Shown here: one piece after another, positions 20,850 to 62,091 of the stretch
How the letters are laid out: each line of letters opens with the position of its first letter
Position numbering within the stretch: the first letter of the stretch is position 1
Assembly (NCBI RefSeq): GCF_964355755.1
Contig: NC_092678.1
Coordinates: 13,142,352-13,206,351 of the forward strand
Length of the DNA stretch: 64,000 bases
Direction of reading: 5' to 3'
From: Antedon mediterranea
Lineage: Eukaryota > Animalia > Echinodermata
Translations under genes and position numbers: made by a program
Notes under the pieces: model-generated
The model's input: only the letters and a program-made list of their open reading frames with translations
The model's database searches: none
Told to the model about the DNA's origin: nothing

Positions 20850-20891
20850 GTAAATCTTGATTGTGCTTTCATGGTATAATAGCAATATCTA

Positions 20892-25014: not shown

Positions 25015-26149
25015 AAACTTTGGTACAAATCTCCGCCTTGGATACCTACCTTATCTATCTGAGATGTACCGCGAAACGTAGATTTGATAACATTAGTGTT
25101 CACAGCGACGCTATTGTTCCATATTTCTGTCTTAGGAAGATATTATAAAGAGTTTTTTAACACAATTTATGATTTCAACATTAGATTTTCATCTCAATTT
25201 TAATTCTTCCCGGTCAAAGTAATTTCCGGGTTTAAGATAAGTTCACCTTGCAACAACCTGGTTTCAAATATTTTCTCTCTTTTATACACAAGGGAGCAGT
25301 TAAAATAATAGATTTGACCCTAAAGGTGACTGGAAACAGGCACTTTCCATCAATCAATAATACAGTGTCCCTTTGGAAGACCAAAAAAAAACCAGATATA
25401 GTAGGACTGGAACTTAAGTTGGCCATTAATCATAGCCATTTCAGTTTTTTGTTTATTTTTAAAAATACCGCGCGTGTGTGAAGGTACAGTAGTTAAATAA
25501 TAAGAATTATACTGCAAATTAATAAAGATCAAATTAAATATACGCCATAAAGAATCAGAATATATTGTGGGGAATAGTATTATAAAATTACATAGGGAGA
25601 TTTGATGATAAGACATTTTTCGAGTGAAATCCCGATAGCTGAGTTTTATTGAGTAAGCTTGCAGGAATAACTGTAGGCTATCTTCCTGTGTCCCGTTAGG
25701 ACCGAGATGTCTGCCCATGTTGCAAGCCGTAATGTCTTCTTTCTTGGGCCCACTCTGTCACGGCAGTTAGTTTCAAAAGATGATTAAATTAAATAATGTA
25801 TTAATAATTATTAGGATGGTATTCATTTGAATAAACGCCTCTCCAATTAAACATCACTTTGAATGATAACCACCCCCCTCCCCAACCCAACCCAACTATC
25901 TAATAAACGTCCATCCACATATTTATAACAACACAATTATACTATTTGTAGTAGAATTCACCGCACTGTTATTTACAATTTACCAAGCATTTGTTATTCT
26001 TTTTTAGCACTTTTCATATCTATTAGAGGATTTCATTTGATTTTAAATGTTACCATATTATTAAAACTACAACATTTAACATATATCCCTCGAATAAGCA
26101 CCTCCCTCAAATGACCTCCGCCTCCCCAAAGGGCCCTACCAAACAATAA

Positions 26150-26335: not shown

Positions 26336-27429
26336 TAATAGTAAAGTTTTGTTTGTAATTAGGATACTTTACACTTGTATGTTGGCTTGATGAAGTGACC
26401 CCCAGACTGTGACAGAAATTGAGTCTGTTTCATATCAAAGTATGAAATATTGTTTATTTTAATTCGAATACAAAAGTTATTCACTTCTGTAAAAAATATT
26501 TATTCACGTATAAAAAGAGAAAAGAAACGTTTAATTATAACCCAAAAACCATTGTCTGACAGACAATTTAAATATTTTTTGCTTTAAATTACATTTTTTC
26601 AGGTAAATAATTGTTTGGTTAAGGTGAATAACTATTATGTGACAATAAAATGACACATTAAAAAACAAATTTGAAATAAAACAATATTTTTTTTAGGGGG
26701 ACAATATATCTTTCAAAAAACGAGCAGCGTTTTTTGTAAGAAATATTTCTTGTTAATTATTGAAATTTAGAGAATAATTAATAAGGTGATTATTAAAAAG
26801 AAACATAACATTTCACCTCTATAAATAGATAATGAAAAATGCTACTAAGGATAATAACCTTCATTTGTGTATACACATTTTTATTAAACAATTCATACAT
26901 TTTGATGTTAGACTATTGTTATATTTTGTTATACTTTTTAAATTCGATTGTTACGGCATTTAATCAGTTCGTCATTAAATATGTTTGGCTATACTAAATA
27001 CAATACTGTATAGGGTAGTCTGCAAATGTTACTGTGATATGCCCTACACTAAGACCTGAATTAGTAAATAATTTAAATTAGACCTCTAATACGGATTAGA
27101 AAAGGTAGATTATTATAACCTAACGTTGTTCAATAAATAACATATTAGACATAATATGGCTAAATGATTTTAGGCCTAATATGCTGAAAAGCCGTGTTGT
27201 GCAATGGATTTTTTTTAAACTGTGTCCCTACTAAGGGAAAATTAGAGAGATCAAATCATGTATAAATTAATGATTACATTTAAATAAATTAACCAAGTTT
27301 AAGTTTTTGAATTTTTTACAAAAGCTAAAATTATGTTTTTACATCAGTTTAGGCTACTATAAATTATATTTTGCAACTTATTTGTGATTCTTCTTTTGTA
27401 TTTGTAACATAATAATTTGCTTACTTTAT

Positions 27430-28620
27430 ATTATTATCAATAGGGCACTATCTAAGATGTTTATGTGGTACTGTCTATTCATTACCACGACGCAATCGCG
27501 GCGAATACCGCGTATTGTATAGTCATTGCGAAAGATTATTTTTCGCGTGAAGTGACGAATATGCGGCGAATATCGTTTAGCTGCTGAAAAGTACGCCGTC
27601 AATAATATTCACACGAAGGATTCGCCGGTTCGTGTGATGAGCGACGATACAATCATTTTTATTTTGCAATATCTTCATCTTAAATGGATTTGCCCTATAT
27701 TTTCTGTTTGTATGTCGTGTTTCACTTTTATTTGTTCGACCTGAAACATCCGAAACTGCTTATTTCCAAATATCAAACTAACAATTTCAACCTTCTGATC
27801 ACGTAAACAATTAACAAAATGTGTGTTCAATGTTTTTTGTTTCAGAAAATCTGAATTATTCAACTTAACATGTATCAGGATGGATTCTTTCCACATTATC
27901 TTTATTTTTTATCGTGTACAGTTTCAACATGTTAAGTCGCTTCTTCTTACACCTATCTGGAGTATCTAGTATCTATCACATAATCTTATTCTCCTACTAA
28001 GACTTTCTAAGGACCAGCGATTCTTGCAAACAATAGTTGACGGGGAAGCAACATAACCAACACGTCATTCCCCGAACTAAAGCCCACATTCTCTTCATTT
28101 TAACTTTAGCATTTACAAGATTTCTGTTTGTCATTTCACGTGCACAATTTAACTAATAACGAAATTCAGACACATAATCAAGTATTGATACAGACTCCTC
28201 TAAATTCCCAAACATTTGAGACTATTTTGAGAGGGACTTAAACTGTTTTTTGATCAAACCGTTTGACCATACAACAACTCAAATGGGCTAAACTACAAGC
28301 AATCACGGACCATGAATAACATCTATTGTTTTATGCCATAGATTTTGCCACCTCACATGGTGGAAGAACGTGTGATCATTTGTTCGTCTTCAAGAGGAAT
28401 TATGCACACAACCGGTTCTACTGCCATTCTCCGGCCAAATAATTTCCAAAATTATATTGACACCCCAGAACGGAAGATTCAGAACGACACCGACAACAAA
28501 ATCGCCTCTAATAATATCCGTTCCAGCCCGAACAAACATGAAGTGAGACTTCCTTATAACCCCTGCAACACCATGAATAAGCACACTTGCTCCAGCAGAA
28601 GACTCGTCCGAAAATGACAA
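27430..28620 (-). repeat. Older paralogous copy of 255-1300 (includes the Gypsy relic)
   Basis: Colinear shared strings, e.g. ATTACCACGACGCAATCGCGGCGAATACCGCGTATT and CAGACACATAATCAAGTATTGATACAGACTC. Confidence 0.8.
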
Positions 28621-32439: not shown

Positions 32440-32685
32440 AAGGCATTTGAAATCAGCACTACTGACTCTTATGAGAGCCCCTGCATCTAGTATCTGCCTC
32501 AGACGTATTGGCTTATGCCTTTCCTCTGGTCAAGGTGGGCACTGGAAGAGAGAAGCCCTTGATCAATGTTAGGACCAATCAAGGTGCTTTAAACAGTCCT
32601 GGCTTTGTTTATATCAAACCTGTCAGTGGCGGTAATTATCGCTGTTGGTTTTGATTGAATAAAATAAAATAAAATTAAAATAAAT
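32440..32685 (+). mobile_element. 5'-truncated copy of the 5S-derived SINE
   Basis: GAGAGAAGCCCTTGATCAATGTTAGG...GTGGCGGTAATTATCGG...(TAAAA)n. Confidence 0.8.
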
Positions 32686-33713
32686 ATATTTAGGGACGAC
32701 TTTGATATATTTAGAAATATTTATAAGGTTAGGTTTTAATATTTAGGAAGAACGTTTATATATTTAGGGATGACTTTTATATATTTAGAATTATTATAAT
32801 TATTTATAGGTTATGTTTTAATATATATTTAGGGACGGCTTTGATATATTTCGAATTATTATAATTATTTATAGTATTATGTTTTTAATATTTAGGAAGA
32901 ACGTATATTTAGGGTTGACTTTTAAATATTTAGAATTATTAGAATTATTTATATGGTTAGGTTTTTATTATTTACGAACAATTTTTATATATTTAGAGAC
33001 GACTTTGATATATTTAGAATTATTATAATTATTTATAGGGTTAGGTTTTTAATATTCAAGAAGAACTATTATATATTTAGGGATGACTTGTATATGTCTA
33101 GAATTATTAGAATTATTTATAGGGTTAGGTTTTGATATTTATAAAGAACTTTTATAAAAGAAGCAGCTTAAGCAGTGGCTTCACAGGGAAACGAATCGTT
33201 ACAAATTAGCAATTAATCTGCAAAACATTGCAGCTTAAAATGCTTAAGCAAATTAAGCAGCTTAAGCAGTGGTTTCACAGGAAAAAGAATCTTTCAAAAT
33301 TAGCAATTAATCAGCACAACATTGCAGCTTACATTGCTTAAGCAAAATAAGCAGCTTAAGCAGTGACTTCACAGCATATGGATCTCTGTTCCCTTTATTT
33401 TCAACCAAACAGTGCAATTTAATTCAGCCTTTAACCCACCGTTATCACTAATTTTACTAATCCCTCATAAGATGAGTCCTCATTGAGAATGGGCCTTGAA
33501 TAGTCCATTATAACATGGGTAGAATGTTGTCAACATGACATTTATCAAAGCAGTTGTTGTTCAAGTAATTTGAAAAAATGCACTCAGAAAAAATATTTAA
33601 ACAAATTGTTTTTCATCTATATTATAAAAGTTATTACGCACTACAAAATAACAAATATCCTTTTTGCGAACACATTCAGCCCTTCACGATAATGGTGGAT
33701 TCCAAATCATCTA

Positions 33714-33815
33714 AATGTTCTACATGTACATCTAAGTGGAATATATGTTGAACCTACGTTAGAAATAGTGACTAATCTCATTAGACTTGGTGTATCTCCA
33801 ACATTACAAACTAAG
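33714..33815 (+). pseudogene. Ankyrin exon missing its acceptor and first 3 codons: NVLHVHLSGIYVEPTLEIVTNLIRLGVSPTLQTK
   Basis: Paralogue of 11489-11599, including the downstream intron; donor gtaatg intact. Confidence 0.8.
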
Positions 33816-33980
33816 GTAATGCACATAAGAGTTAGCCTATATTCCCGTGATCTATGTGTCGTGTAATTCTCGGCTGAGACTCGAACACACCCCAGATCAC
33901 TAGTGGTATTTATAACTCTATACATGCATCAAAGTGGTTACGACAAGAAAATACAGTTGGACACCTAGCGTTCGTGGTAC

Positions 33981-34283
33981 GGTGAGGGCGTGTGGCGCAG
34001 TGTGTTGGACGTTGGACTACCGATCGTCAGACCTAGGTTCGAATCCAACTCTCGCCGCATTGCTTGTATCCGTAGGCAAGATACTTTACTTACGTTGCCT
34101 CTCTCCACCCAGGTGTATAAATGGGTACCCAGTTAGACACAACTTTGCGCTGGTTACCGGCTGCATTATGGGAGTATGTTGCCATACGTGTTTGATCCCA
34201 AAAAATACTGCTTGTAAAGCGCCTTTGAGCATGATTACTCATGAAAAGGGCGCTATATAAATGTGGTATTATTATTATTATTA
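33981..34283 (+). mobile_element. tRNA-derived SINE with CORE-like body and L2-type tail
   Basis: A box TGGCGCAGTGTG, B box GGTTCGAATCC, body CTCCACCCAGGTGTATAAATGGGTACC, tail GCGCTATATAAAT..(TAT)n; absent from the paralogous intron at ~11768; inverted copy at 37645-37858. Confidence 0.88.
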
Positions 34284-34755
34284 TCTAATCTCTTAATAGG
34301 AAACGAATTAATATACATATTATATTTGTTTAATTATCCGCATCGTTTTTTAATGAAATGTTATATTGTGTATGAATAATACGTGTTATTTGTAATGAAA
34401 TTAAGAGAAAAGTGGCTTACGTAGGCCTACGTCTTCATTATTATGTAATAATATATCTTCATAAAGGCGATTTACGACATAGCAAATTCACGGAGGTATC
34501 TTTCTTCGTGTTTAGTTCAAGTGTATAGTTAGGTTATCGTGCAGGCAGAACTAAAAGTATTTGCTGCAAATTATTAATTTAACCAATAACAACTCCCTGA
34601 TTTAACTATGTTTTATGTGGACATTTCATTATAAATAGTTGAATTTAGAATCATTCAACTTCTTTGTGTATTATTTATCATTACTATAAAACTATAGTTT
34701 TTAGCTGCAATACACTGTATGTATAAACTTCGTGATACTAAATTTTTCTTTATAG

Positions 34756-34860
34756 GACGGAAACACCCCACTACATGAATACATGCGTTCAAATAAACCT
34801 ACATTAGAAATATTGAAATATCTCACGAAACATGGTGCATCAGTAACAGCACTAAATAAG
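34756..34860 (+). CDS. Ankyrin exon (cluster 2): DGNTPLHEYMRSNKPTLEILKYLTKHGASVTALNK
   Basis: tag|GAC...AAG|gtaata, 105 nt, open. Confidence 0.8.
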
Positions 34861-35378
34861 GTAATATTGGACTACAGATAATTGATATGATTACACCTAT
34901 AACGTACGTATGATCTACACCGCAACATTATTATCTTATCCACTTTATTTTATATCATATTCCAATTGATTGCGTTATTAGAATTAGTTGCTGCAATAAT
35001 TATTTAGTAGAAATTTAACAAGATCCTAGTTATTGTGAGATTGGTATATTGTGCAATGAAACTGTTAATTTAATTATGTTTCATGTGGACATTTATATTA
35101 TAAAATAGTTTAATTTAGAATCATGACTGAAAGCAATGTTTACATTAACGTGTATGTTAAACTACACGATTATGATTTATTTTATCAGTAAAATTGCTAA
35201 AAATATGATCCGAGACAATTGTTATAATTCCATCAACATATGCATATACACCAGCAAAACCTTTTATTTCAATTTCTTTGTGTATTATTTATATATATAA
35301 CTATAATTATTTGTTTTAACCCTATAGTATTAACATAACATGATTATGAATTCGTTATAGAACGGAAATAATGATTTA

Positions 35379-36693
35379 TCTATATATAAATTTACGTAAG
35401 GGCAAAATTCGGTAAATCGCGCCTTACTTCTAGAATTTTTACTCGATGGTATATAAAGTTGGTTCGTACTTTCGGTGCTGATTTAACCACCTGATGTAAC
35501 CCTGTTTACTAATTAAATTGAGTTAGATAATTAGTTATTGACGATTAACACGAATTTAGGTTCAACGATTTGCCCCAAATAGGGGTGTTTTCCGATCGTG
35601 GTATACACTGTCTAATGGATGTCCAAAAATACCCGCACACAATAATACGAGGACGCTTCGCATTTTCCTATCTCCTCCTACGATAATTGTTTTTAATAGC
35701 TGAAAACCGATTGAACTGCTCGAGTACAGCATCATAATGTTGAAGACAGGCCAATTTTCTAAAAAAAAAATACTATTTTGATAGATTTAATTTACGTTTT
35801 TACAAATGTATTGATTTGAGATGAATGGAACATTCCAATCTCTCAGTCTGCCAGTTTGGTTTAACACAAGTAGGTAAATGTATGAGCCCTTGGAGAATAA
35901 ACTTGCAATACTTTGACAATACTGTACTGCAAATACATATTAACCATGTTTGGTCGTCATTTGAATCGAACATTTCTTACTGTGAATACTGTTAGATGTA
36001 AAAAAATATATACAAACATTTCTTACTGTGAATACTGTTAGATGTAAAAAAATATATACAAATAAACTTTATTACTGTGATTGTGGGTAGGCTCTACTGT
36101 TAGATTTATAAACACGTAATATACAAATAAACTTTATTACTGACAGTTGCTTCTCAACGTTTGCATTAATTAATAATTACAAAAAATATAAACGTCGTGG
36201 TGGTGTATCGTTACATGTACTTTACTATTTCAATCGACTATGACAGTGACAGTTTTAACAAAGTATTAAATCGCAAATGTTTTACTATATTTAGTCACCG
36301 TTAGTGGTATATTATTTATAGGCCTATAAAAAATGAAAACAATATTTCGTTACTGACGTGGATAAAGAATATATTTAAAAATTGTTCCTCTTTGTACCTA
36401 TCCTCTTTCCCATCCCTGAACCCTAATTGGGTTTCTTTAAATGAATAAAATTTGGACTCATTTTGTGGTAAGTTTCTCTTTCGGAAGTAATTCCCAGGGT
36501 GCTAATTTTGGTTGACTACATAAATCATTGTGTCTACTTATTCGTTTCTGTAAACGACAATGTATTATAGTCCTTCGGTACGTACATTTGAAATCGCCAG
36601 TTTTTTTACCCTGAAATTACTGTCAATTCGAGAACCATCTGTGGGCGCGGCACGACCTAGATGGTACGCGAGCGAAGCGAGCGTACCATCTAG
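35379..36693 (+). mobile_element. Non-autonomous Helitron (family 1), full length
   Basis: A|TCTATATATAAATTTACG ... CTAGATGGTACGCGAGCGAAGCGAGCGTACCATCTAG|T. Confidence 0.88.
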
Positions 36694-36784
36694 TAATAAT
36701 AATAATAATAATAATATTTCATTCTTTTAGGCCTATAGCGCATTGAGCAAGCTCTCTATGCGCTGAACATTATTACCCTAGTCA

Positions 36785-37643
36785 TTTTTAGTCGCGTGGA
36801 AGCGACTCTATAGTTCACTATGTCGGTCGGTCGGTCTGTCGGTCTGTCTGTCGGTCCGGTATCACTATGCGTTTTATCGCTCTCTGACCTTATCTTGATA
36901 TCAGTTTAATCTAGCTAAGTAAATTTTTCACAGTATATTCCTTATGGCCAGGAATCGATGTGGTTATGTTTTCACGGTGCGCAATAAAAAATTACGCGGT
37001 CTACGTACGATTTAACGAAATCACGTTTGTAATCATATCTTCACAACCATGAATCACAATTAAATAAAAGTTGGTACTCATAAATTTCAGGGCATAAATC
37101 ATCATATGGCAATACAATTACCTGCGTAGCGCATGTAACGCATGCGTACGCGCGCTTAAAATTTTCCAAATTTATTTTCGAAGAAATAAGAGTACGTTTC
37201 AGGCAATTTCAAGCGTTTACAAAATTGCCATGAGTCACAAAGCCACAAAGTTACGCGCGCACGTGTATTTAAAATTTTAAAATGCGCAAAATTCATTTTT
37301 AATCAACTTTCTACGCGTTTCTTGTCATTTTGAGCATGTCAAAAATTCCCATACGCGCGCAAATTTGTACGCGCGTGGTGCGCACGTAGCGTTAAATACA
37401 TGCTTTTTTCGCGTGATTTATGTTTTTGCAGCCTTTTCTAATAATTTTACCATCTTTTAAACAATTTCGACTTAAAATTACGTCATACGGGCACGTCGAA
37501 TTGGATAATTTGCGCACGTTTTTGATGGATGGTGGACGCGACTATAGTTCACTATGTCGGTCGGTCTGTCTATCGGTCTGTCTGTCTGTCGGTCCGGTAT
37601 CATTATGCATTGTAGCACGTGACTTAATGGCTGTTGGCCTTGT
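36785..37643 (+). mobile_element. DINE-1/HINE-like element, copy without the nested MITE
   Basis: Colinear with 9038-9762 plus 10608-10794. Confidence 0.75.
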
Positions 37644-39199
37644 TTAGGATCAAACACGTATGGAAACATGCTTCCATAATGCAGTTAGTAATCAGCGCAA
37701 AGTTGTGTCTTGATCTAACTGGGTACCCATTTCTACACCTGGGTGGAGGGAGAGAGGCAAACGTAAGTAAAGTACTTTACCTACGGATACAAGAAATGCG
37801 AACCTCGGTCTCACGATCAGTAGTCTAACGTCCAATACACTGTGTCACACGCCCTCGCCTTATATGATTAGACCTATAAAAGTACGTATGATCTGCACAG
37901 CAAACATATTTAACATATTATAATGTAATGAGTTGTTTAAAATCATTTGGAAGTAAAATTGCACAAGATTCTAAAGTTTTAATGATATAAATGTCATTAT
38001 AAAAAGTTTGAATTTAGAAACGTGACTGAAAGCACTTAACGATTATGATTTTTTTTCTGTAACCTTTCAAACGAAAATCCACAGGCAATCGATATAAATG
38101 AGTCTACGTTCGCAGCGTATGCACCAGCAAACCCGTTTATTTAAAAATGTTGTTTATTATATATAATTATAGAACCCCATAAATTTCAGGGCATAAATCA
38201 TCATATGGCAATACAATTACGCGCGTAGCGCATGTAACGCATGGGTACGCGCGCTTAAAATTTTCAAAATTTATTTTCGATGAAATAAGAGAGTACGTTT
38301 CAGGCAATTTTAGCGTTTACAAAATTGCCATGAATGCGCAGATTTTTGCGCGCGCACTGGGCGTTAAATGTTATTACGCACTCTTCTTGCCCGATTTTTG
38401 TTTTCTTTACTTACTTTTTAACTCGAAATTACGTTATACGAGCACGTCAAAAGTGACAGGCTACGCCGTTGTATATTTAAAAAAAATATAAATGTTTTTA
38501 AACATTTTAACATTTATAAACATGTTCAGCAATTTCGGTCAGTTGGTAGGTTGGTCGGTCGGTTGGTCGGTCTGTCGGTAAACACCAATGAGCACGCGAC
38601 TGTAGCCATCTATATGACCTTGTTGAAGGATCATCCCCTCTCTTAAGCGACAACCTCTTTTAACGATCATTATCCTGTTATTAAATTGTGTGAAAACATC
38701 TTTTAAAGAACCACCACCTATTGTAAGCGTCCATCTCTTATATAAAGGATCACCACACGTACGAAAGGTGGTTGCATACGATGTATAAGTCACACAATAG
38801 TTTAAAGGAAATTGCTAACCGTAATAAATTCAAATTATACACTTATAGTACATGGGCTGGGAGGGGTCCTCTTGTACCCCATCCCCACACATCTCTATAT
38901 TTTTTGTATTTTTATGTACCTATATATCCGGTGAACTAAAAAATAGATGTTAACATCAAATATCCTCATTCCCGAGATGGATTTTTAACGGATTTTTTAA
39001 AAAGATTTAATTTCGTATTTGTTACCAATGTTGGGGGAGGGGGTAATACAAATAGGCATAAGTACAGTTTTCCTTGAACAAATCATTCATTTTTTATATA
39101 AATGTATGAGTATTGTCTGCTCTACAAGTTGATATAAAATATGTGGTAATTAAATAATTAATGACATTACAAAAGGTCACAATTTTTTTTGAAGCCTTT

Positions 39200-40385
39200 T
39201 TTTTGTTACAGTGTTTACACAATGGCTTCTTCAAGCAGGTAAGCATGCTTTGTTGTCTTTGGATCTTCTAAAGCCTATAACACCTAAAATATTGTGTTAT
39301 TTGTTTTAAAAACTAGATAGATATTATAAATAGACTTTATAGATCATGATTATTACAAAAAATAAGTTATATTACTTTAATTTTTTATTTGGTAGGCGTT
39401 TTAAAAAATGGGGATATATATGTCCCTATGGCCCTCTATGTTGTGGAACATGGGTCATATATGTCCCAATGGGTCACCATGCTTGTATTGTGTTATAATT
39501 ATCCAAGTTCATATGTCAATAATTTACAGAATGTTTGATCTTATTATGACTTTAAAATTACTACACCATATTATTCATTTTCAAAAAAGTATTATTTTCT
39601 TATAAAATTATTATTTTTATTGTGTCTAATTTATAATTGTCATTTGTTATTATATTATATATAGCCCTTGTGAATGCTTGGCTTCTATATCGCCGGGAAT
39701 GCAAAGAAGTAGGCGTTGCAAAGAACTCAATTTTGAATCAAAGGAAGTTTCAAGCAATAGTTGCATAAACACTTCAAATAAACACTAAAAAACCAGGCAG
39801 AAAATCAACTCCAGTTGCAGCTAATATTCAACCTGTAAAGCGTCTACAAAAATGCCCACATGCAAATGACGATGTAAGGTTGGATGAGGTTGCCCATTGG
39901 CCACTAAAAGATGAAAAACGCCGTCGTTGTGCTATCTGTAAAGTCAACAAGAAAGATACAACATGTGAACAATGCAAAGTAGCTCTTTGCTTTACAGAGA
40001 AGCGGAATTGCTTTAGAGAATACCACAAAAAATAGACTTTTCATAATTGTATCAAACAATAGAAAAATCACAATTTTTGTTTATTAATGAGAATTTGGAT
40101 GTGTAAAATTGTAAATAGCATAACAAATCTTTTTACTGAAGCTTATGATGTGATTTTCGGATCTTTTTTTGGAAATGTCAATAAATATTTTGCTGTTTAA
40201 AAAAAATGATTTTTTTGTCTATTATAACCCATTGGGACATATATGACCCATTACCCAAAACAGGGTCAAATGTCAAAAGGGCTCAAATTAACATATGGAA
40301 CTGATTCATGTATGTGTAATAAGTAATAAAAACTTGGTAAATATTTTTTATTAACAATAAAATTATTTTTGGGCCTTGATGGGTG
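39200..40385 (+). mobile_element. Internally deleted piggyBac (PGBD3-like) with transposase C-terminal cysteine-rich domain (~39670-40035)
   Basis: WLLYRRECK...DVRLDEVAHWP...RRRCAICK....TTCEQCKVALCFTEKRNCFREYHKK*; perfect 24-bp inverted repeat at 39451-39474 / 40227-40250; outer boundaries approximate. Confidence 0.8.
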
Positions 40386-40692
40386 GGAAACGAAATAATA
40401 TACATATATATTTGTTTAATTATCCGCATCGTTTGTTTAATTAAATGTTATCTTGTATGAATAATACATGTGATTTGTAATGCAATTAATAGAAAAGTGG
40501 CTTACGAATGCCTACGTCTTCATTATTATGTAATACTACATCTTCATATAGGCGGTTTACGATATAGCAACTACACGGAGATATCTTTCTCCGTGTTTAG
40601 TTCAAGTGTATAGTTAGGTTGACGTTCAGAACTATAAGTGTTTGCTGCAATACAATGAATATATAAACTCCATGATTATAATTTCTTTATAG

Positions 40693-40797
40693 GACGGAAA
40701 CACCCCGCTGCATGAATACATGCGTTCAAATAAACCTACTATAGAAGTAGTAAACTATCTCACGAAGCAAGGTGCTACAGTAACAGCACTAAATAAG
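40693..40797 (+). CDS. Ankyrin exon (cluster 2): DGNTPLHEYMRSNKPTIEVVNYLTKQGATVTALNK
   Basis: tag|GAC...AAG|gtaata, 105 nt. Confidence 0.8.
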
Positions 40798-41293
40798 GTA
40801 ATATGGCTAGAGATATTTAATATGATTACAGCTATAACGTACGTATGATCTGCATCGTAAACAAAGCTTATAATCCACTTTATTTTATATCATATTACAA
40901 TTGATTGAGTTATTTAGAATTACTTGCTGCAATAATTTAGTAGTAATTAAACACTATCCTACAGTTATTGTGAAATTCGTATATGTGCAATAAAATTATT
41001 AATGTAACTATGTTTTATGTCATTATTAATGGTTAAATTTAGAACCATGACAGAAAGCAATGTTCACATTAACCTGTATGTATAAACCTCACGATTATGA
41101 TTTATTTTTTCAGTAACATTGCAAAATAATGGAATGCACAGACACTTTATATACTTCGGTCTACGTTCACATCACATATACAAGCAAAACCTTTTATTTC
41201 AACTTCTTTCTGTATCATTTACCATTACCTAACTATAATTATTTGCTGCAATACACTGTATATATAAACTTCATGATTATAATTTCTTTAAAG

Positions 41294-41398
41294 GACGGAA
41301 ACACCCTGCTGCATGAATACATGCGTTCAAATGAACCTACATTAGAAGTAGTAGACTATCTCACGAAGCAAGGTGCATCCATAACAGCACTAAATAAG
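41294..41398 (+). CDS. Ankyrin exon (cluster 2): DGNTLLHEYMRSNEPTLEVVDYLTKQGASITALNK
   Basis: aag|GAC...AAG|gtaata; starts 601 bp after the previous exon. Confidence 0.78.
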
Positions 41399-41897
41399 GT
41401 AATATAGGGCTACAGATAATTTATATGATTACACTTATAACGTACGTATAATATGCGCCGCCAACATATCTTATCCACATTAATTTATATCCTATTACAA
41501 TTGATTGAGGTATTTATAACTACTTGCTGCAAAAAATATTTAGTAGTAATTAAACAAAATCTTACAGTTATTGTGAGATTAGTATATTGAGCAATACAAT
41601 TATTAATTTAACTGTTTTATGTGGACATGTCATTATAAAATAGTTGAATTTAGTATCATGACAGAAAGCAATGTTCACATTAACTTGCATGTATAAACTA
41701 CACGTTTATGATTTCTTTTTTCAGTAAAATTGCAAAATAAGGGAATGCACATACAATTGATATAATTCGGTCTACGTTCACATCATAAATGCCCAAGCAA
41801 AACCTTTTATTTCAATTTCTTTGTGTGTTATTTACCATTACCTAACTAAATTATTTGCTGCAATACACTGTATGTATAAACTTTGTGATAGTAATTT

Positions 41898-41955
41898 AAA
41901 CCTACATTAGAAATATCTCACGAAACAAGGTGCATTAGTAACAGCACTAAATAAG
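41898..41955 (+). pseudogene. Broken ankyrin exon (acceptor and 5' part deleted, plus a small internal deletion)
   Basis: AAACCTACATTAGAAATATCTCACGAAACAAGGTGCATTAGTAACAGCACTAAATAAG|gt inside a third tandem cassette. Confidence 0.8.
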
Positions 41956-42171
41956 GTAATATAGTGCTACAGATAATTTATATGATTACAGCTAGGAAGT
42001 GTAGACGATAGTTCTCGGAATGATAATGACTCGAGTAAAAAGGTTTTAGAAAGACGTTCTCCCTCTACGTTTTTTGTCGGTTACCATTATTGTAAATGAC
42101 ATTCGTAAAACTAAACCTACTCTGTTTCACAGTGTCTTATGATTAATAACATTTTAAAGTATAGTGTTTAT

Positions 42172-44600
42172 GAGTGCGTGTCACCAAAAATCAGACATAT
42201 TCGAATTGGCTCATATTTTGCACATTGGCAGACCTTGATGTAAGTAAACCTGATGTGTAGTTTGTTTGGTAAAATATCGCTTAGTTTTCGAGAAAATCGA
42301 AAAATAACGATTTTCGGCAATTGTGTTAATTTTTGGTGTATAATTTACATTAAGTTTAACAGCCTCTGGAAGCCAAATGTAGCAAGCTAGCGTTATAATA
42401 TTTTACACTTACGTTAACTACCATCTTGACAATAATTTAGTAAAGTTTCAAAAAATGTAATGAAATTCTAATATTTTTACTAATTAATTACTAATTAGCA
42501 TATATACAACTCTTAAAAAATAGGGTAAAAACAAACGCGTTTTTTTTCATGTGCGACGAATTTTTTTTTACTAAAAAGAACGTCAATCTACTGTTTAGAT
42601 ACTAATATTTATTAATCAAGTAAAAACAATTTGGCGAAACTATTTTCCGCTCCGCGCCATAGCCACAAAGTTGTAAGAAATTCAAAGATTTTATCTATCG
42701 GCAAGATCAATCAGATGTACCTATTGTTCTCTATTTACAGATTTAAGGTCAATTTTACTACGAGAAACAAACTTTAAAGGTAAACTGAAAGGTCCTGAAT
42801 AATTTGGAATAACGTTTTAATATAAAAAAACATCTAAAAATAAATTTCTTGTCAAATTTAAACGACTAATCCATGAAATTAAGCAATTACTATCTGAGCT
42901 CAACATTATAACTCACTTAGCTTCATCACCTATTATGTTTTCCACTAGGTGAATTTATTCTTATTATTATTATGATATAATAATAATAATAATATTATTA
43001 TTTTTTGCACTATACGCGCGCATGCGCAGTTTATTTTTATCAACAAAGTGTTCCATTTGACATGCGCGTATACGCGAAAATGTTTGATTTGCGCGAATAA
43101 TTTCGCCTAGTGGAAAACAGGCTATATAACATAATGTTCTTATCTTCTCATATAGGGAGTATTCGCACGAGCACGTTAACGCTATTTTCCAAGCTCCGCC
43201 CACTTTTTAAACAACATTCTGTGCGTGCGCAAGCATTACGAAAAACTTTAGTTACGTGCGTCGAGAACCTTATTTCTGAAAAATAGCGTAAATGAAAACA
43301 TTAACCAAAACATGATTAAACATGCCTGGCTACGCTTAGTCTCTATAAACCCAAGGTATTCCATATTTTAATACGTGTGGCGTATGTTGCGTACGCTACA
43401 CATGCGTTGCGTTCTACACTTCCCGTCGAAGCACGAAATCAAAACGAACAAATACAATAACGCAAATGTTCACTGAACTCTGTTGTTATGCAAATGAGTA
43501 GAATGGTGACATCCGATAACGTTCAAACGCTTTATTAAAAATTTACAGAACGCGACTTTAAATACTAACAATTTAGACAACAGAATCTTCCCACATATTA
43601 AATTCTTATTTAAAAAAAATGTTACAGACATAGTTTTATCTTCATTGCTACCTTAATCAATCGAGCAACTGCACATGGAAACCAGCTTTCCCATCAAATC
43701 AATGTATGGCTTCTTGCGCTTTATGGTTATATCTGTGGTATCAAGTTCAAGTGAAGTACACATTTCTTGCAACATTGGCAAAGAGAATCTGGAGAGTTTT
43801 TCTTGAGCTTTCAGTTCACAAATAGTATGCATTTCAAACATTATTGGATGCTGCAAGCCTAATGTGTCCAGTACGGTTTGCGACAAAAGTTGAATTTCTC
43901 TTTCCTTTTCTGTTTTTGAATCGTCTCCATTTTCTTCGACTTCGTCACCATCTTCATTACTATCGTAATCATCATCTTCGTCATCATCATAATCATGAAC
44001 GGCTGCATCTGTCCTCCTTTTGTTAGCAAAGTGTGAGAAAAAACTTGCAATCTGCTGTGCTGTTAAACATTCAGTCTTGCTAAATAGATGTGAACCATCG
44101 CTGTGCCTGGCCGATCTCATCTCTCGTGAGACATCACATGGATCAGCTTTCGGTCCCGTCTGCTCTCCAGCGTCAAAAACATCAATAAGGTAGGTTTTCT
44201 GTTGTACACAGAAAATCGGGGTTTTTTTGCAGAGGACTTTAACGCCCAGCCCATTTGCAGTTTGGGGCCAATGTCAAACCGTGGCAAATCGTTGGTTCTT
44301 GTTGGTTCTGGATTTTTAGAAGTACACTCTTCTAGTTGTGTTGCGTATAATTTCATTGCCCTGTCATAAAGTATTTCATGTTCTAGTGCGTTCTTTGATA
44401 ATCTAAGTGTTTCTCTAGGAAAGAGTACCTCTGATATGGCCTAATGCAACCTTGTTCACGACAAAAGATCAGTTTGCTGGGGGTGCCAGGGCTTTCTTCA
44501 CTTTCTATTTGTTCGTCGTCATTTATATCAGCTTGTTCTTCATGTCTTGGTTTGTATTCTTGCTTTTACTGCAATAAATGATACTTGATTTATTTTAATC
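42172..44600 (-). mobile_element. Sola3-like DNA transposon remnant (transposase C-terminus ~43653-44530, putative terminus GAGTGCGTG at 42172)
   Basis: Frameshifted minus-strand peptide LIFCREQGCIRPYQRYSFLEKHLD (C2H2-like)...LQMGWALKS...MRSAR..DGSHLF...LTAQQIASFFS; superfamily assigned from recalled similarity only. Confidence 0.55.
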
Positions 44601-44644: not shown

Positions 44645-47600
44645 CACCCGATTCTGCTACTGTCCACAGGTGCTACCTGTAAAACTATAGCTAGTTATAC
44701 ACGTTGTTGTCTGCTATAAATGCTGTAATTTTAACACACGGTACACTGTCTGTAGCACAGTGTCTGTTGACAATTTACAATGATGTACAACCATAGGCAG
44801 GTTTTCGTACTGCCATGCAAGAATGTATAGGCCTAGGTGTTTTCCGCCGCTTTTAGGCCTTCTAGTCAATTATTGTTATTATTATACGAATTACGTAATT
44901 AGTCTAGTAGCTCATCTACCTTTTTAGCAGGGCATAATGAATATTGTAGCTAGGCTAGGCCTACTAGTCTAGCGGGAAATCAACCAATTATTTGGTTGGA
45001 TACGAGTTTAGGGTAGGAAGTTAAGTACGAGTTGGCATGGGTACGAGTCGACCAAGGGTGAATCGACCAGGGTACACCCGGGCGCCCTACTAGAGCATAG
45101 GCTACAGGCCTGCAGGAATGGGAAATCTGTCCTAGTTATAGGCATAGGCCTACATTGGGACGCCCAAAAAAGCCATCCTATGAGCATAAAAAGGCCTCGT
45201 AGAGCCAGACATGTTAACATATACTACACAGTACTAGTACGTCTACCATTTATTATAGTTCCATGGTACTAGGTCTGGTAGGGTAGGGTAGGGTTTCCAG
45301 TAATTTCGGTCGCGTTTTTTCAGGAGGGCATGTGAGTGGTGAGGTAGGTTAGCCCAGCTAGGCTAAACTAACATGTAAGTAGTATTCTACCATGGGATGA
45401 GAATGAGTCGGCATGGGGGTACGGGTTGATCTTTATCCGTATTCTAGGGTGCTGGTCAACCCGTAACGTACCCATGTCAACTCGTACCAAACTTGGCTAA
45501 CTCGTACCCAAATAATTGGTCAACTCGTACCAATAGCTTTATAGCTTTATTGATAGCTGGGTTCAAATCTAGGTTGGGACGGTTTTTTCTCATTCTAAAA
45601 CAGATTTCCTTATAATAATAAAATAATATCGACCTATGAATTTAACTGTAATATTTTATTGTATACATAATATTAGTAGTAGTAGTAATTCCCATTGCAT
45701 TTATTATTATAATATATTTTACGGTTACCCCTTAATTATACTATAGTATAACTTCCTTGTTATATTTTACAATATTTTCTTCATAATTCAACACTTTTTT
45801 TTCACAGCTAATTATCAACTGAATCATCACACACCAAATCTCATGAAATCTCTAGTGTATTTCTCCAAGCTAATCCAGCTACAGTACATGGTATTGCCTT
45901 GAGGCTAAACTACACAGTATACTGGGCACTACCATCATTCCTGGCCCGTCAACCTGGACCACATTATGGTCCAACACAGTCGTGTACCACTGATTCCAAA
46001 TAGTGAATTACATCCTGTGGTCAAGGATTTATTTGCACTTATGCTTATTTTCTCCAACATACAGAGTACGTAAGGCTTTTAATTTGCTTTTATACCTGTT
46101 AATTAAAAAATAGTTTATGCCTATTGTTGCATAAAGATCAAATTTAGACTGTAAATACTGGGATGATCACCCTAAATTTTCTTTTTCATTTAACAATTTT
46201 ATATTTCACAGCCAGAAAAAAGCATACAGAGTTTTTTTTATTCATAACTGTTGAATTGCATCCCAATACATGGTACCTATTGGTATTATATCTATAATAA
46301 TAAAGTACTCTCTTATAAATAGATGTATCTCTCCAAACTACTCCAACTACCTAATCTAATAATAGTACTATTAGCATACTACTGTACACTTTTTAGACAA
46401 GAAATAAGTTGTATCCACCTACAGGACTTATGTTAGTACTGTACAGTCGATCGTCCTCTCACTGGTCTGGTCAACATAATCTACGCCTAGATTATTACAG
46501 TAATTAAAGTACATTATTACAGGGATTTTTTTTTTTTTTTTTCAGAAATCAAAGTTATGTGTATAGAAAGCAGTACTCGTATTTAAAACTAAGCAGGTTG
46601 TACTCTTGAACGCAAACTGGCAGGAAAATTTTTAATATTTTTTGTTGTTGAAATGATGGAATCCTAACTTCAATTCCACGAACTGGAGACGAAGACATAT
46701 TACGACCCTTTTATTTAAATTTATTTGGATAGACCTCCATGTAAATTCGTTAAAGGCTATATGATTGTTTTATATTTTAATATGTGATAGTAGAAAATCA
46801 TTGTGTATAATGAGGACTATGAATCTGATATTTACTTACATTCTCATCTTTTTAAAAGTTTATTTATAATGCTGGTAATGAATTTACTATTGAAAAAGTC
46901 ATGTGTCCACTTATCTCAAATTGTGGCACACCTCTAACCTTGGTAGAACTGACTGTGTTCTATATGAGTACATTTAATTTGCCATATAGTAGTGTTTCCA
47001 CCATACTTCGACCTGGTAATTGAATACATTTCATCGGGGTAAAATTATCACCTTTAACATAAAGTATCCTCCTGAAACATGTATTTGTACTGTACTTCAT
47101 CTACTATTCATTTAATTACTTAATACTAATTTGGGTGATTTATGTCTAACTTCAGGAATGATCTGAGGCTAGAAGAACGAATTTCTGCACATATAATTTA
47201 TATAAAAAATAAACCAATGTTTTCCTAAAAATTTAACCCCTAGGTTGATAACTAACAAAGAAATTATTGAAATTGTGTTCTCACAATATATGTGTACTGT
47301 ATCTACATATGCATACTGCTGTACTTGTTTTTAACCGCATAATGGCATTAAAAAAAAAGAATGTTTTATAATTATTATGTTATTTCCAAATATTAAAGGT
47401 CTGAAAAAGAAACTAAATGTTACCAAACTATGTTTTTGAAAATCTCTATGATTGATATAATTATAATAATATGAACATAATATTAAATTATATTGACTAT
47501 TTTTGATAATCATCATGTCCTTATAAATTCATTTATATTTCTTTTGTGTAATATAGTTCATATATTATGTATTAAATAAATTGGTAAGGCCCTATACTGT

Positions 47601-50600
47601 TTATATTTAAGGAAAGTTTATATACACTATTATTTTATGCCTACCAATATTAGTATTAATTGTTTATGTAACTATTTTGTCTAATTGCATTGATTTTTTG
47701 TATAGGCCAATGGCATTAATGTTTTCTCAAATCAAATTAGCCTAATAATGCCATATTTAGAAACATAATTCATTGATTTCTGATATTCTGTACTTGTGTA
47801 TGCATTACTAAAATAGTAGTTATTTTATTTCATTTATAATGTATGTATAAACTTTTATTCAGTTTTTTAAGTTTAAAAATAATTATTAAAATACCTATCT
47901 ACCTTTCTGTTATTGTTACTATTATAATATTTTTTGAGGCAGATTGATTTCAATAAAAACATTTTAAACAATTAATTTGACTTATACTGTACTATGTTAG
48001 TTCAGGAGATGAAGTGTGTGTTGGGAGAATCTGATGTGTTGGAGGTTGGTGATGTGAGGTGTATTTTTGTCACTTTAAGACCTAAATTAGATGTTTTCTG
48101 AAGAAAAGAAGTAAGTGGATAGGCTTTCAAACAACTCCAAGAAGACTCACACAAAAATAATTCCCAATAAAATAGTATGTAACAGTGTTACACTAAATTG
48201 AATAAACTCGAGCGGAAAAATAACACACATAAAAAATCATTCATTTCCTTGTCGAAAAGCGCCCTCTCTAGTTTTCTATTAATTTATTAATAATTATTAT
48301 TAATTAATGAGTAATATAAACTTATTTTTAACATTTAATGCTGGAAGCTGATACTACTCCTAACTAGGTGTCATACCTCCCAATTTCGTCAACGTATTCA
48401 AAGCACTTCAATAAATATCACATTGAACATTAAAAATTAGGGTTATGGATAGAATTTTGCTTAAAAACATATACAAAAAACATCGATAAAAAATACTTTC
48501 CGAATTTAAAAACATTTGAAACTTCTTTTATATGTTCAATATAGGTTGCTCTATTCACAGAAACAAAATTTCATTCATGAACGTATTTTGTTGGTTGTTT
48601 TTTTCAAAATCGTTATTAGGTTTAAAAAATGCATTGGAATTGTATGGTCTTTCATAAGTGTACATTTTGTAAAAACGTAAATTTAAAAAATCAGTAATAT
48701 GGCTCGATAGTCATTTTTTTTTTTGCAATATGGATGGAGCAACCTATATTGAACATTTATACCAAGTATCAAATGTTTTTGAATACGAAAAATATTTTTA
48801 TCGATGTTTTTTGTATATGTTTTAAGCAAAATTCTATCCATAACCCTAATTTTTAATGTTCAATGTGATATTTATTGAAGTGCTTTGAATACGTTGATGA
48901 AATTTGGAGGTATAAAACTTTGTTTGGAGTAGAATCAGCTTCCAGCATGAAATGTTAAAAATATGTTTATATTACTCATTAATTAATAATAATTATTAAT
49001 AAATTAATAGAAAACTAGAGAGGGCGCTTTTCGACAAGGAAATGAATGTTTTTTTATGTGTGTTATTTTTCCGCTTGAATTCATTCAATGTACTTTAATA
49101 TACACTGTTACATACTATTTTATTGGGAAGCCTATTTGCTTCTTTTCTTCAGAAAACATCTAATTTAGGTCTTCAAGTCACAAAAATACACCTCACATCA
49201 CCAACCTCAAACACACCAGATTCTACCAACACACATTTCATCTCCTGAACTAACATAGTACAGTATAAGTCAAATTAAATGTTTTAAATTTTTTTATTGA
49301 AATCAATCTTCTGCAAAAAAATATTATAATAGTAACAATAACAGAAAGGTTGATAGGTATTTTAATATTTTTTAAACTTAAAAAGGTAAAAAAAAAACTG
49401 AATAAATGTTTATACATACATTATAAATGAAATAAAATAACTACTATTTTAGTAATGCATACACAAGTACAGAATATCAGAAATCAAAGAATTATGTGTC
49501 TAAATATGGCATTATTAGGCTAATTTGCTTTGAGAAAAACATTAATGCCATTGGCCTATACAAAAAATCAATGCAATTAGACAAAATAGTTACATAAACA
49601 ATTAATACTATATTGGTAGGCATAAAATAATAGTGTATATAAACTTTCCTTAAATATAAACAGTATAGGGCCTTACCAATTTATTTAATACATAATATAT
49701 GAACTATATTACACAAAAGAAATATAAATGAATTTATAAGGACATGATGATTATCAATATAATTTAATATTATGTTCATATTATTATATTATATCATAGA
49801 GATTTTCAAAAACATAGTTTGGTAACATTTAGTTTCTGTTTCAGACTTTTAATATTTAGAAATAACCTATAATAATTATAAAACATTCTTGTTTTCAATG
49901 CCATTATGCGGTTAAAAACAAGTACAGCAGCATGCATATGTAGATACAGTACACCTATATATTGTGAGAACATAATTTCAATAATTTCTTTGTTAGTTAT
50001 CAACCTAGGGGTTAAATTATTAGGAAAACATTGGTTTATTTTTTATATGTGTACAGAAATTCGTTCTTCTAGCCTCAGATCATTCCTGAAGTTAGACATA
50101 AATCACATAGATTAGTATTAAGTAATGGATGAAGTACAGTACAAATACATGTTTCAGGAGGATACTTTATGTTAAAGGTGATAATTAGTATAAATGTTAC
50201 CCCAATGAAATTTATTCAATTACCAGGTTGAAGTAGTATGGTGGAAACACTACTATATGTACTCATGTAGAACACAGTCAGTTCTACCAAGGTTAGAGGT
50301 GGGCCGGGTGCCAACATTTGAGATAAGTGGAAACATGACCTTTTCAATAGTAAATTCATTACCAGCATTATAAATTTAATGTTAAAAAGATGAGAATGCA
50401 AGTAAATATTAGATTCATAGTCCTCATTATGCACAATGGTTTTCTACTATCACATTATTAAAATATAAAACAATCATATAGCCTTTAATAAATTTACATG
50501 GAGGTCTATCCAAATAAATTTAAATAAAAGGGTCGTAATATGTCTTTGTCTCCAGTTCGTGGAAAATGAACAAAAAATATTCAAAATATCCTGCCAGTTT

Positions 50601-52783
50601 GCGTTCAGTACAACCTGCTTAGTTTTTAATACGAGTACTGCTTTCTATACACATAACTTTGATTTCTGCAAAAAAAAAAAAAATCTCTGTAATAATGTAC
50701 TTTTTAATTACTGTAATAATCTAGGCGTAGATTATGTTGACCAGGCCAGTGAGAGGACGATCGACTGTACAGTACTAACATAAGTCCTCTAGGTGGATAC
50801 AACTTATTTCTTGTCTACAAAGTGTACAGTAGTATGCTAATAGTACATTATTAGTATACTATAGTTGGAGTAGTTTGGAGAGATACATCTATTTATAAGA
50901 GAGTACTTTATATTTATAGATATAATACCAATAGGTACCATGTATTGGGATGCAATTCAACAGTTATGAATAAAACAAACAACAAAAAACTCTGTATGCT
51001 TTTTTTCTAGCTGTGAAATAAATTTTGGGTGATTATTCCAGTATTTACAGTCTAAATTTGATCTTTATGCACCAATAGGCATAAATGATTTTTAAATTAA
51101 CCGGTATAAAAGCAAATTAGAAGCCATACATACTCTGTATGTTAGAGGAAATAAGCATAAGAGCAAATAAAGCCTTGACCACAGGATGGAATCAGTAGTA
51201 CACGACTGTACTTACGTGTGGGCTAGGAATGATGGTAGTGCCAGTATACAGTGTAATTTAGCCTCAAGGCAATACCATGTAGCTACATTAACTTGCAGAA
51301 ATACAGTAGAGATTTCATGAGACTTGGTGTGTGATGATTCAGTATGATAATTTGTGCTGTGAAAAAAAAAAATTGCTGAATTATGAAGACAATATTGTAA
51401 AATATAACAAGGAAATTATACTATAGTTACTATAATTAAGGGGTAACCGTAAAATATATAATAATAATAATAATAAATGCAATGGGAATTACTAATATTA
51501 TGTAAACAATACAATATTAAGTTAAATTCATAGGCCGATATTATTTTATTATTATAAGGAAATCTGTTTTTGAATGAGAAAAAGCCGTCCCAACCCAGAT
51601 TTGAACCCAGTATCAATAAAGCTATATAAACAGAATAGACCATTATTGTAGCCGGAATTTAGCGTAGACCTACTCGAGGCCTAGTAAGATTAGCTAGAAG
51701 AATACAGGTCAACCCGCAATTCCAACTGGTAACCAAATTTTGGTATATTCGTACCCAAAATGTTGGCTCGCACTCTAGCAATCATCAAGGGCTGGCTTGT
51801 ACTCTTCATGGGCTGACCAGTATCCATGTTTAATGCTATTAAAAGTTTTGGTACAGGTTAGCCAAAGTTGGTACGATTTGACCAATTATTTGAGTACGGG
51901 TTAGCCAAATTGGGTACGAGTTGGCATGGGTAGGTTGACCAGCACCCTAGAAAATGATAAGGGTCAACCCGTACCACTGTGCCAACTCGTTCCCATGCTA
52001 GAATACTACTTACAGGTTAGTTTAGCCTAGCTGGGCTAACCTACCTCACCTCTCACATGCCCTCCTGATAAGTAGGCCGAAAACGCGACCGAAATTACTG
52101 GAACTCTAGCATACTAGCTATGCCTAGATATTAGTGTCCCATCCGTAGTATAGTACCATGGAACTATAATAAATGGTAGACGTACTAGTACTGTGTAGTA
52201 TAGGCTAACACCTCTGGCTCTACGAGGCCTTTTTATGCTCATGGGATGGCTTTTTTGGGCGTCCCAATGTAGGCCTATGCCTATAGCTAGGACAGATTTC
52301 CCATTCCTGCAGGCCTGTAGCCTATGCTCTAGTAGGGCGGCCGGGTGTACCCTGGTCGATTCACCCCTGGTCGACTCGTACCCATGCCAACTCGTACTTA
52401 ACTTCCTACCCTAAACTCGTATCCAACCAAATAATTGGTTGATTTCCCGCTAGACTAGTAGTAGGCCTAGCCTAGCTACAATATTCATTATGCCCTGCTA
52501 AAAACGTAGATGAGCTACTAAACTAATTACGTAATTCGTATAATAATAACAATAATTGACAAGAAGGCCTAAAAGCGGCGGAAAACACCTATCCATTCTT
52601 GCATGGCAGTACGAAAACCTGCCTATCTATGGTTGTACAGTACATCATTGTAAATTGTCAACAGACACTGTGCTACAGACAGTGTACCGTGTGTTAAAAG
52701 TACAGCATTTATAGCAGACAACAACGTGTATAACTTGCTATAGTTTTACAGATAGCACATGTGGACAGTAGCAGAATCGGGTG
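44645..52783. repeat. 8.1-kb quasi-palindrome: arms ~44645-48551 and ~48737-52783, ~185-bp spacer
   Basis: Outer ends CACCCGATTCTGCTACTGTCCAC / GTGGACAGTAGCAGAATCGGGTG; inner ends ATGTTCAATATAGGTTGCTC / GAGCAACCTATATTGAACAT; reverse-complement matches seen at spot checks along the arms. Confidence 0.92.
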
Positions 52784-53169
52784 GGGAAACTATAGATCGA
52801 TGATTATTGGAATGTATGATCAATAGAAATTTCTTGCCCGCACCTGGCTTTTAAGTATACACAGTTTAAGTGTAGCATTGTGTAATTGTTATATTATTTG
52901 GCTTTAACTATGACTACATTCAGACATGGTATGGTGTAGTTGAAATATAGCAACTATAGCAGCTATAGCTGAGGTTTCAGGCAAGTGACCAATGTGTCAC
53001 AGTAGGATAGTGATATAACAGCTATCCCAAGGCTATTTGCAGCCTGTTTTGTATAGATGGTGTGAAGCAATTGCACAGGTATTTGTTTGCTGTTTATAAT
53101 ACCAAAGCTATCCCAAGGCTATTTTCAGCCTGGATATATCAATTATAGCAACTGTAAGTTATTTCCATG

Positions 53170-54022: not shown

Positions 54023-54059
54023 TGACCAATCCTGCGCCTTAGTGATGAGGGTATGTGTG

Positions 54060-60649: not shown

Positions 60650-60912
60650 GTTATTTTACTTATTTAGTTTAACCCATGTTATGTAAATTTTTTATATTGT
60701 TATTTCTTTATTTTTTTAATTCATTTATTTATTTATTTATTTTCTTTTTCCGTGTTGTTTTTATCTAATCTTTGTTTAGGCATGTCTGTCACAAGCTTTT
60801 TGCTTTTTTGATCATGCCTTCTTCAATCATATTACCTTTCTTTACACCATTTTGTTGACTGTTTTATTTTGAAGAAAATAAATGTTACTTTGACTTTGAC
60901 TTTGACTTTGAC
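60650..60912 (+). mobile_element. LINE/SINE 3' tail ending in (TTTGAC)n
   Basis: ACAAGCTTTTTGCTTTT stem-loop region, AATAAA, then four TTTGAC units. Confidence 0.55.
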
Positions 60913-61986: not shown

Positions 61987-62091
61987 GACGGAAACACCCC
62001 GCTGCATGAATATATGCGTTCAAATGAACCTACCTTAGAATTAGTGAACTACCTCACGGAACAAGGTGCATCCGTATCAGCACTAAATAAG
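61987..62091 (+). CDS. Ankyrin exon (cluster 3), identical to 3340-3444
   Basis: tag|GAC...AAG|gtaata. Confidence 0.88.

Follow-up and report, generated by a model that had tools for sequence, protein, structure and literature searches.

Birth and death of ankyrin exon cassettes in a ROCO array of the crinoid Antedon mediterranea, and the likely origin of a cluster without GTPase exons

Is a cluster of ankyrin exons that no GTPase exon follows a store of spare variants, a working part of a gene, or a remnant? The question is raised by a 64,000-nucleotide (nt) stretch of Antedon mediterranea DNA (RefSeq assembly GCF_964355755.1, contig NC_092678.1, forward-strand positions 13,142,352 to 13,206,351), here called the window, to whose positions 1-64000 all readings below apply. 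It holds three clusters of ankyrin (ANK) exons. Cluster 1 forms the front of a gene in which exons for a Roc GTPase and the start of a COR domain follow the repeats (3340-20849); cluster 2 (33714-41955), our subject, lacks such exons; cluster 3 begins at 60911. A preliminary description had proposed that cluster 2 might supply extra upstream exons to the gene copy that continues at 61987, or serve as silent templates for gene conversion into expressed copies. Our verdict is birth and death of exon cassettes in a ROCO array, an ordinary mechanism. We lean toward reading cluster 2 itself as a transposon-interrupted partial duplicate of the ankyrin array, the orphaned front end of a sister ANK-Roc-COR gene that was likely still translated in the fairly recent past but whose own GTPase half has likely been lost since. 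Cluster 2 consists of the following parts.

33714-33815, + strand: dead cassette B0, a copy of the divergent exon 11489-11599 minus its first 9 nt and its acceptor; donor kept
34756-34860, + strand: intact ankyrin exon B1, 105 nt, phase 0; its downstream intron marks it as the positional counterpart of cluster-1 exon 3937
35361-35369, + strand: stub B2, 9 nt, after an AG; the matching cluster-1 position (about 6130) is also exon-less
35379-36693, + strand: Helitron-like insertion, TC...hairpin-CTAG, between A and T
37862-38170, + strand: exon-less remnant of a cassette intron, sister to the one that precedes cluster-1 exon 6894
40693-40797, + strand: intact ankyrin exon B3, 105 nt, phase 0
41294-41398, + strand: intact ankyrin exon B4, 105 nt, phase 0, AAG acceptor, TLLH in place of TPLH
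41897-41955, + strand: damaged cassette B5, with acceptor, 5' third and 9 internal nt deleted; donor kept

The three intact exons held up in a splice-site and frame check: B1, B3 and B4 are bounded by AG..GT (the acceptor at 41294 being AAG, not TAG), are in phase 0/0 and read openly, and all three score above the Pfam Ank (PF00023) cut-off. The three damaged cassettes were likewise confirmed, with the acceptor lost at 33714, a 9-nt stub at 35361 and a 5'-deleted copy at 41897-41955. All six cassettes of the preliminary inventory thus lie where it placed them, but a seventh, exon-less unit at 37862-38170 had been overlooked. None of five AGs tested within 33560-33760 yields an open in-frame exon for B0. 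The Helitron-like insertion begins 9 nt past the B2 stub, and we take its TC...hairpin-CTAG ends between A and T to be the Helitron hallmark. An AG within the damaged B5 would give an in-frame 45-nt mini-exon (41909-41955) with a weak acceptor. The cluster is real DNA, with exact contigs over several stretches in the DNA-like runs X1 and X2 (one sample, which may be that from which the window comes), and the B5 deletion was matched exactly by a 107-nt contig of X5, a second sample with the same organism code.

A type-A repeat is one 105-nt phase-0 exon, and its unit, intron included, measures about 600 bp. The peptide variants said to be private to cluster 2 are indeed unique; this is not special, however, because all type-A copies differ pairwise to a similar degree (84-92% nt identity). 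The exons share orientation and phase 0 with the copy at 61987, as had been reported, and no significant cassette match was found on the opposite strand of the window, all lying on the + strand. A profile of linker, Roc and COR-start exons from three relatives recovered 8/8 such exons in 16107-20849, the weakest at E 0.07, but did not get below E 1.5 in 20850-64000, and blastn detected no second copy of the linker/Roc exons in the window. This bears out the statement that no linker or Roc exon stands between clusters 2 and 3; between 20850 and the window edge at 64000, no Roc-COR is joined to the cluster-2 repeats.

Where the cluster came from was evident from its introns. Between clusters 1 and 2, intron p-distances were 0.12-0.30, mostly 0.12-0.25. 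Trees built from exons only or from 5' introns gave no resolution of the cassettes, but three pairings stood out in the 3'-intron tree: the introns that follow B1 and 3937 (support 86-89), the remnant 37862-38170 and the intron preceding 6894 (support 100/99), and the two introns within 40693-41955 (support 90/93). The sub-block 34756-38170 repeats the cluster-1 order (3937-6894), the middle exon having died in each, and 40693-41955 expanded locally; both sub-blocks begin with sequence found behind cluster-1 exon 11489. Cluster 2 is, therefore, an old partial duplicate of cluster 1.

Two further ideas were considered and rejected. A related Helitron-like copy lies in cluster 1 at 4072-5510, and capture of the cassettes by a Helitron was dismissed since the two copies occupy different sites in opposite orientation and contain no cassette. 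The homology between 237-1295 and 27413-28581 was discarded as a marker of segmental duplication after six-frame reading pointed to decayed retroelement-like sequence, which is what we presume its motifs to be.

We then asked whether the intact exons carry the mark of translation. B1, B3 and B4 together show 9 synonymous changes where the mutation spectrum of the introns predicts 6.9, and 10 non-synonymous ones where it predicts 20.1, giving an omega of 0.38 (binomial p 0.033) with non-synonymous changes at half the neutral expectation (Poisson p 0.011); the counts are small, changes were scored against the majority sequence, and the three exons were chosen as intact. Omega was 0.60 (p 0.11) for the four cluster-1 type-A exons and 0.51 across all 7 distinct type-A exons. 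Under intron-like substitution and indel rates, an exon stays intact with a probability of 0.086, so that the survival of at least three of six has a p of 0.011. B0 differs from 11489 in 8 codons, 7 of which change the residue, as neutral decay would give. Neutral decay, which the preliminary description had named as a finding that would speak against its proposal, thus applies to B0 and not to B1, B3 and B4, whose pattern is that of translated exons and not of silent templates. With 4/7 units damaged or exon-less and transposons occupying most of the span, cluster 2 could be viewed as long-dead neutral debris in which three open exons survived by chance; the deficit of non-synonymous changes and the improbable 3/6 survival both argue against this, and we regard it as very improbable.

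If cluster 2 served as a donor, traces of copying would be expected in its neighbours. A GENECONV-type permutation test on three alignments of in-window copies (4, 7 and 5 units; 82, 47 and 175 polymorphic columns) revealed no significant conversion tract, the best global p being 0.59, 0.76 and 0.14, respectively. No tracts shared with expressed exons were found within the window, and a flow of exon variants by conversion is not supported there.

The predicted binding face, too, speaks against a donor role. Designed ankyrin libraries are described as varying positions 2, 3, 5, 10, 13 and 33, the binding surface (PMC4308713; PMC8229355), and we mapped repeat positions by aligning the exon to designed ankyrin proteins. 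B1, B3 and B4 equal 3340/3937 at 6/6 predicted binding positions; 5/6 of these are invariant in all 7 distinct type-A exons, and HEYMRSN never changes. Copying cluster 2 into the neighbour would, on this mapping, likely change the outer helix, not the target face. No diversifying selection was detected on the window repeats, with omega below 1 and the predicted face nearly invariant. Distant paralogues vary at position 13 (5 residues among 8 repeats of P0008, 4 among 6 of P0025), and judged by their repeats P0008, P0017 and P0025 would be better candidates for diversifying selection. In these three, the residues after TPLH also vary strongly, unlike in the window's subfamily.

Several observations nevertheless pull away from a simple orphaned duplicate, and some of them toward a silent reservoir from which gene conversion would transfer cassettes to expressed ANK-Roc genes and so vary target binding. 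The longest exact matches are longer between clusters (51, 48 and 42 nt) than inside them (30-31 nt). For the 51-nt match, which is intronic, a plain shuffle over 23 intron pairs that disregarded conserved columns gave a borderline p of 0.035; for the same pair with invariant columns removed, the pairwise p was 0.069 and the global p 0.41. Old exchange between the clusters is possible. The orphan position, and exon and intron homology close enough to template conversion, fit a reservoir as well. Against it, no tract is significant once invariant sites are removed and the 51-nt match lies in an intron; the cassettes bring no new residue to any of the six predicted binding positions, omega is below 1 and splice sites are kept; three intact cassettes, hardly enough to form a repertoire, compare with 129 and 144 in two lamprey clusters (PMC12264053); the neighbour's array is complete and open and needs no assembly; and dead cassettes occur in cluster 1 too. 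The proposal of silent templates is accordingly not supported, and we consider a reservoir quite improbable.

The remaining contrary points concern use rather than copying. Purifying selection cannot separate a recently orphaned array from one still in use, and a neutrally decayed B0 beside B1, B3 and B4, which do not look so, fits a living host gene with a dead intronic exon. Further points came from sequencing runs, served as contigs, for which 40390-41995 (1.6 kb) was offered for matching. None of the runs listed as matching carries an RNA label, which counts neither way; X5 and X9, the latter under another organism code, were taken as RNA solely from their splice junctions. One X5 contig (depth 9.9) contains a GT..AG joint from 40797, the B3 donor, to 41294, the B4 acceptor, which is absent from X2, and another leaves the B5 donor (41955) into the start of an 11147-like exon (27/28 letters). 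Loose ends of X5 contigs before 40693 and 41294 read as ankyrin-exon ends, and X9 has one ankyrin-to-ankyrin and one ankyrin-to-linker junction; the family is spliced in both X5 and X9. Exon bins had deeper contig cover than intron bins, X5 more markedly than X2, but depth was not used, being no measure of copy number or expression; bins lacking cover (X2, 41902-41995) were set aside too. A 1266-nt X5 contig lies on a transposon remnant with a cysteine-rich tail at 39400-40380, which we take to be piggyBac-like.

The X5 junctions are not assignable to cluster 2, because at 41331 the joint contig apparently departs from B4 (the same depth, 9.91, suggests that it is the same contig), because 1.6 kb was offered, on which any paralogue pair would land, and because close copies exist outside the window, as seen in the DNA run X2 in a 467-nt contig with 9 differences in 389 followed by other letters. 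The strongest hint that cluster 2 is alive comes from the 41955 junction, since among 11 window cassette ends only those of B5 and B1 are strictly closest to B5 rather than to B3/B4.

Cluster 2 might, then, still be in use, its exons spliced distally across the 19-20 kb transposon block into the copy starting at 61987, or reached from the 20849 donor of the 3'-truncated neighbour, so that the array is lengthened or varied by exon skipping. The shared strand, phase 0, kept splice sites, omega of 0.38 and the two X5 joints speak for this. Set against it, besides the 41331 difference and the paralogues, are the following: the sole 11147-type exon of the window lies upstream, so that a cluster-2 origin of the 41955 contig needs a downstream copy beyond 64000; the longest intron inside the neighbouring gene is about 4 kb; with 0.7% mismatches, cluster 3 may represent cluster 1 on the other haplotype, retained in the assembly; and no N-terminal cap exon was found upstream, by weak tests. 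Of these tests, a strict ATG-to-donor scan for a first coding exon, itself weak, returned 0 candidates across three gaps, and the profile built from four N-terminal caps, which are too divergent to show absence, reached no better than E 0.63. We hold continued use to be possible but doubtful. A bolder version would make the locus an animal counterpart of brown-algal LRR-ROCO genes with cluster 2 as a working part: dozens of phase-0 cassettes in a tandem cluster would form a variable ankyrin repertoire attached to a ROCO switch, joined over long distances by splicing between gene copies (from cluster 2 to the 61987 copy, or out of 20849) and reshuffled by recombination. This we think unlikely.

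Returning to the orphaned duplicate, its history may be pictured as follows. Unequal recombination between 600-bp units would add or remove whole repeats with the frame kept, and transposon insertions and deletions, which are seen in both clusters, would have destroyed single cassettes. The surviving exons may have been retained through selection on the spliced protein rather than as templates. Judging from relatives, the full protein would combine an ANK sensor, a Roc-COR GTPase switch and a DED-like effector and is probably a cytosolic immune or cell-death receptor.

The surroundings of cluster 2 comprise the following features.

1744-1909, + strand: two decayed cassette remnants upstream of cluster 1
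3340-12578, + strand: cluster 1, six intact phase-0 ankyrin exons (3340, 3937, 6894, 11147, 11489, 12471)
16107-20849, + strand: linker exon and seven Roc/COR-start exons, last donor phase 0
60911-64000, + strand: cluster 3, a 98.55% copy of 2265-5372 with 21 mismatches and 4 gaps (0.7% mismatches)

In the neighbouring gene, the joined frame of six ankyrin repeats, Roc and partial COR is open over 578 amino acids (aa), all introns are GT-AG, and the P-loop GKEGAGKTS is intact. Taken singly, the P-loop exon gave no Pfam match, nor did the divergent exons 11147 and 11489 match Pfam Ank; the P-loop exon is, however, 98% identical to P0018, which passes Pfam Roc (PF08477) and so identifies it as Roc GTPase. 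Phase 0/0 holds for every one of the 11 intact ankyrin exons in the window. Only the COR-A start is present, and neither a COR continuation nor a DED-like end was found in 20850-64000 (43 kb; profile and blastn); either the gene is truncated on its 3' side, or an intron of more than 43 kb within it holds clusters 2 and 3. Past the donor at 20849 the frame reads 9 residues to a stop (20849-20882), and an AATAAA lies roughly 60 nt beyond it; in-frame splicing into cluster 2 would be possible from this phase-0 donor.

Loss and gain of units was also apparent in cluster 1, where three dead positions (the pair of remnants in 1744-1909 and a unit that has no exon and ends near 6130) lie beside the six intact exons. 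The 12471 cassette has been gained or lost as a single unit. Blocks 70 nt apart before exon 3340 (2551-3172) enclose the whole of that cassette elsewhere (11981-13034). Cluster 3 is far younger than cluster 2, and either was duplicated recently or is a second haplotype that the assembly retained; its exons 61987 and 62584 are identical to 3340 and 3937, and the copy starts directly after an (ACTTTG)n tail.

The window DNA is AT-rich and full of transposon remains. A nearly whole long interspersed element (LINE)-type element with stops (13117-15602; Pfam RVT_1 and zf-RVT) sits between the last ankyrin exon and the linker exon, and other retroelement pieces include a reverse transcriptase fragment at 8222-9051 and an integrase remnant at 24398-25050 (- strand). 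A 5S-rRNA-like head at 6195-6550 is followed by a tail that recurs at 32443-32688, presumably a short interspersed element (SINE) of 5S origin. Nested large inverted repeats at 44645-59776, with arms 83-89% alike (e.g., 45540-51626) and 56-bp and 345-bp tandem arrays, are adjoined by a decayed transposon-like open reading frame at 43653-44440 (- strand).

Relatives were sought with the neighbouring gene's exons. The COR-start exon 20604-20849 retrieved 17 proteins, all from Antedon mediterranea (best 86-88% identity), and the P-loop exon (54 aa) 14, again all from A. mediterranea (best 98%, another 89%). The five closest models (P0001-P0003, P0018 and P0019) are all partial, at 212-523 aa; fragments are, therefore, usual in the subfamily or in its annotation. 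In P0018 and P0019 the HEYMRS repeat motif is nearly unchanged. Among the other relatives, the full-length P0008 and P0017 are ANK-Roc-COR-A proteins whose DED match lies below the Pfam cut-off, and COR-A was passed by P0003, P0008, P0017 and P0021. No kinase domain was among the Pfam matches of the five relatives scanned. In the Atlas, the commonest taxa of ankyrin- and Roc-bearing clusters were molluscs, arthropods and sponges, which we treat as a lead only.

The closest parallel outside animals is the LRR-ROCO family of brown algae. Zambounis et al. (PMC3341825) describe Ectocarpus ROCO genes in which each LRR is one exon, with dead and reversed cassettes in introns, and a reservoir was proposed; in Teng et al. 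(PMC11378527), somatic recombinants are given as unreported, and alternative splicing is preferred. As these sources present them, the algal genes share with the crinoid locus a repeat sensor joined to Roc-COR, one symmetric exon per repeat, intact beside inactivated cassettes (in both clusters here), recent duplicates, and gene birth and death (PMC3341825; PMC11378527). They differ in that the algal LRR exon is 72 nt in phase 2, whereas here an ankyrin exon of 105 nt in phase 0 is found in an animal host, no cassette lies on the opposite strand, selection is purifying and not diversifying, and relatives carry a DED-like tail.

Lamprey variable lymphocyte receptor (VLR) genes are reported to be incomplete in the germline and to draw on donor clusters of 129 and 144 cassettes (PMC12264053). 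The likeness lies in cassettes that encode repeats and are clustered apart from the remainder of the gene. In that account, however, the lamprey has more than 100 diverse donors per cluster, an incomplete germline gene and deaminase-linked somatic assembly, whereas in the crinoid the neighbour has an array that, within the window, is complete, and the would-be donors, three in number, are alike at the predicted binding face. Cluster 2 resembles in its workings the algal arrays of dead and living cassettes; it fails tests for a VLR-type donor because there is no significant tract within the window, the three would-be donors are alike and the neighbouring array is complete. The sea-urchin SpTransformer cluster, as far as its published descriptions consulted here go, is likewise an echinoderm immune family in a duplication-prone cluster, but with two-exon genes, mosaic elements within one exon and no GTPase.

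DAPK1 is laid out as a repeat region with Roc-COR and a death-fold end. DAPK1-type ROCO and AP-GTPase proteins, as treated in PMC8195603, thus resemble the crinoid proteins in joining repeats to Roc-COR and a death-fold end; the crinoid family differs in its lineage-specific expansion and in the lack of a kinase among the five relatives scanned. The same source presents repeat-GTPase-COR-effector proteins as sensor-switch-effector systems, and the portion available to us makes no mention of a crinoid. In the literature we searched, outside which most subscription journals lie, no description of crinoid ANK-Roc-COR genes was found.

Nearest of all are the A. mediterranea ANK-Roc-COR(-DED-like) proteins P0008, P0017 and P0021, with the partial P0001-P0003, P0018 and P0019, which belong to the same family; these are automatic models, and the distant members vary at the predicted binding face where the window subfamily does not. 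A donor reservoir, if true, would be a rare invertebrate route to receptor diversity, but the evidence points to ordinary exon birth and death. The value of the locus lies in the family more than in cluster 2: an expanded set of crinoid ANK-Roc-COR(-DED-like) genes with one ankyrin repeat per phase-0 exon, some of whose paralogues vary at the predicted face, and which offers a testable animal case of repeat-exon arrays gaining and losing modules.

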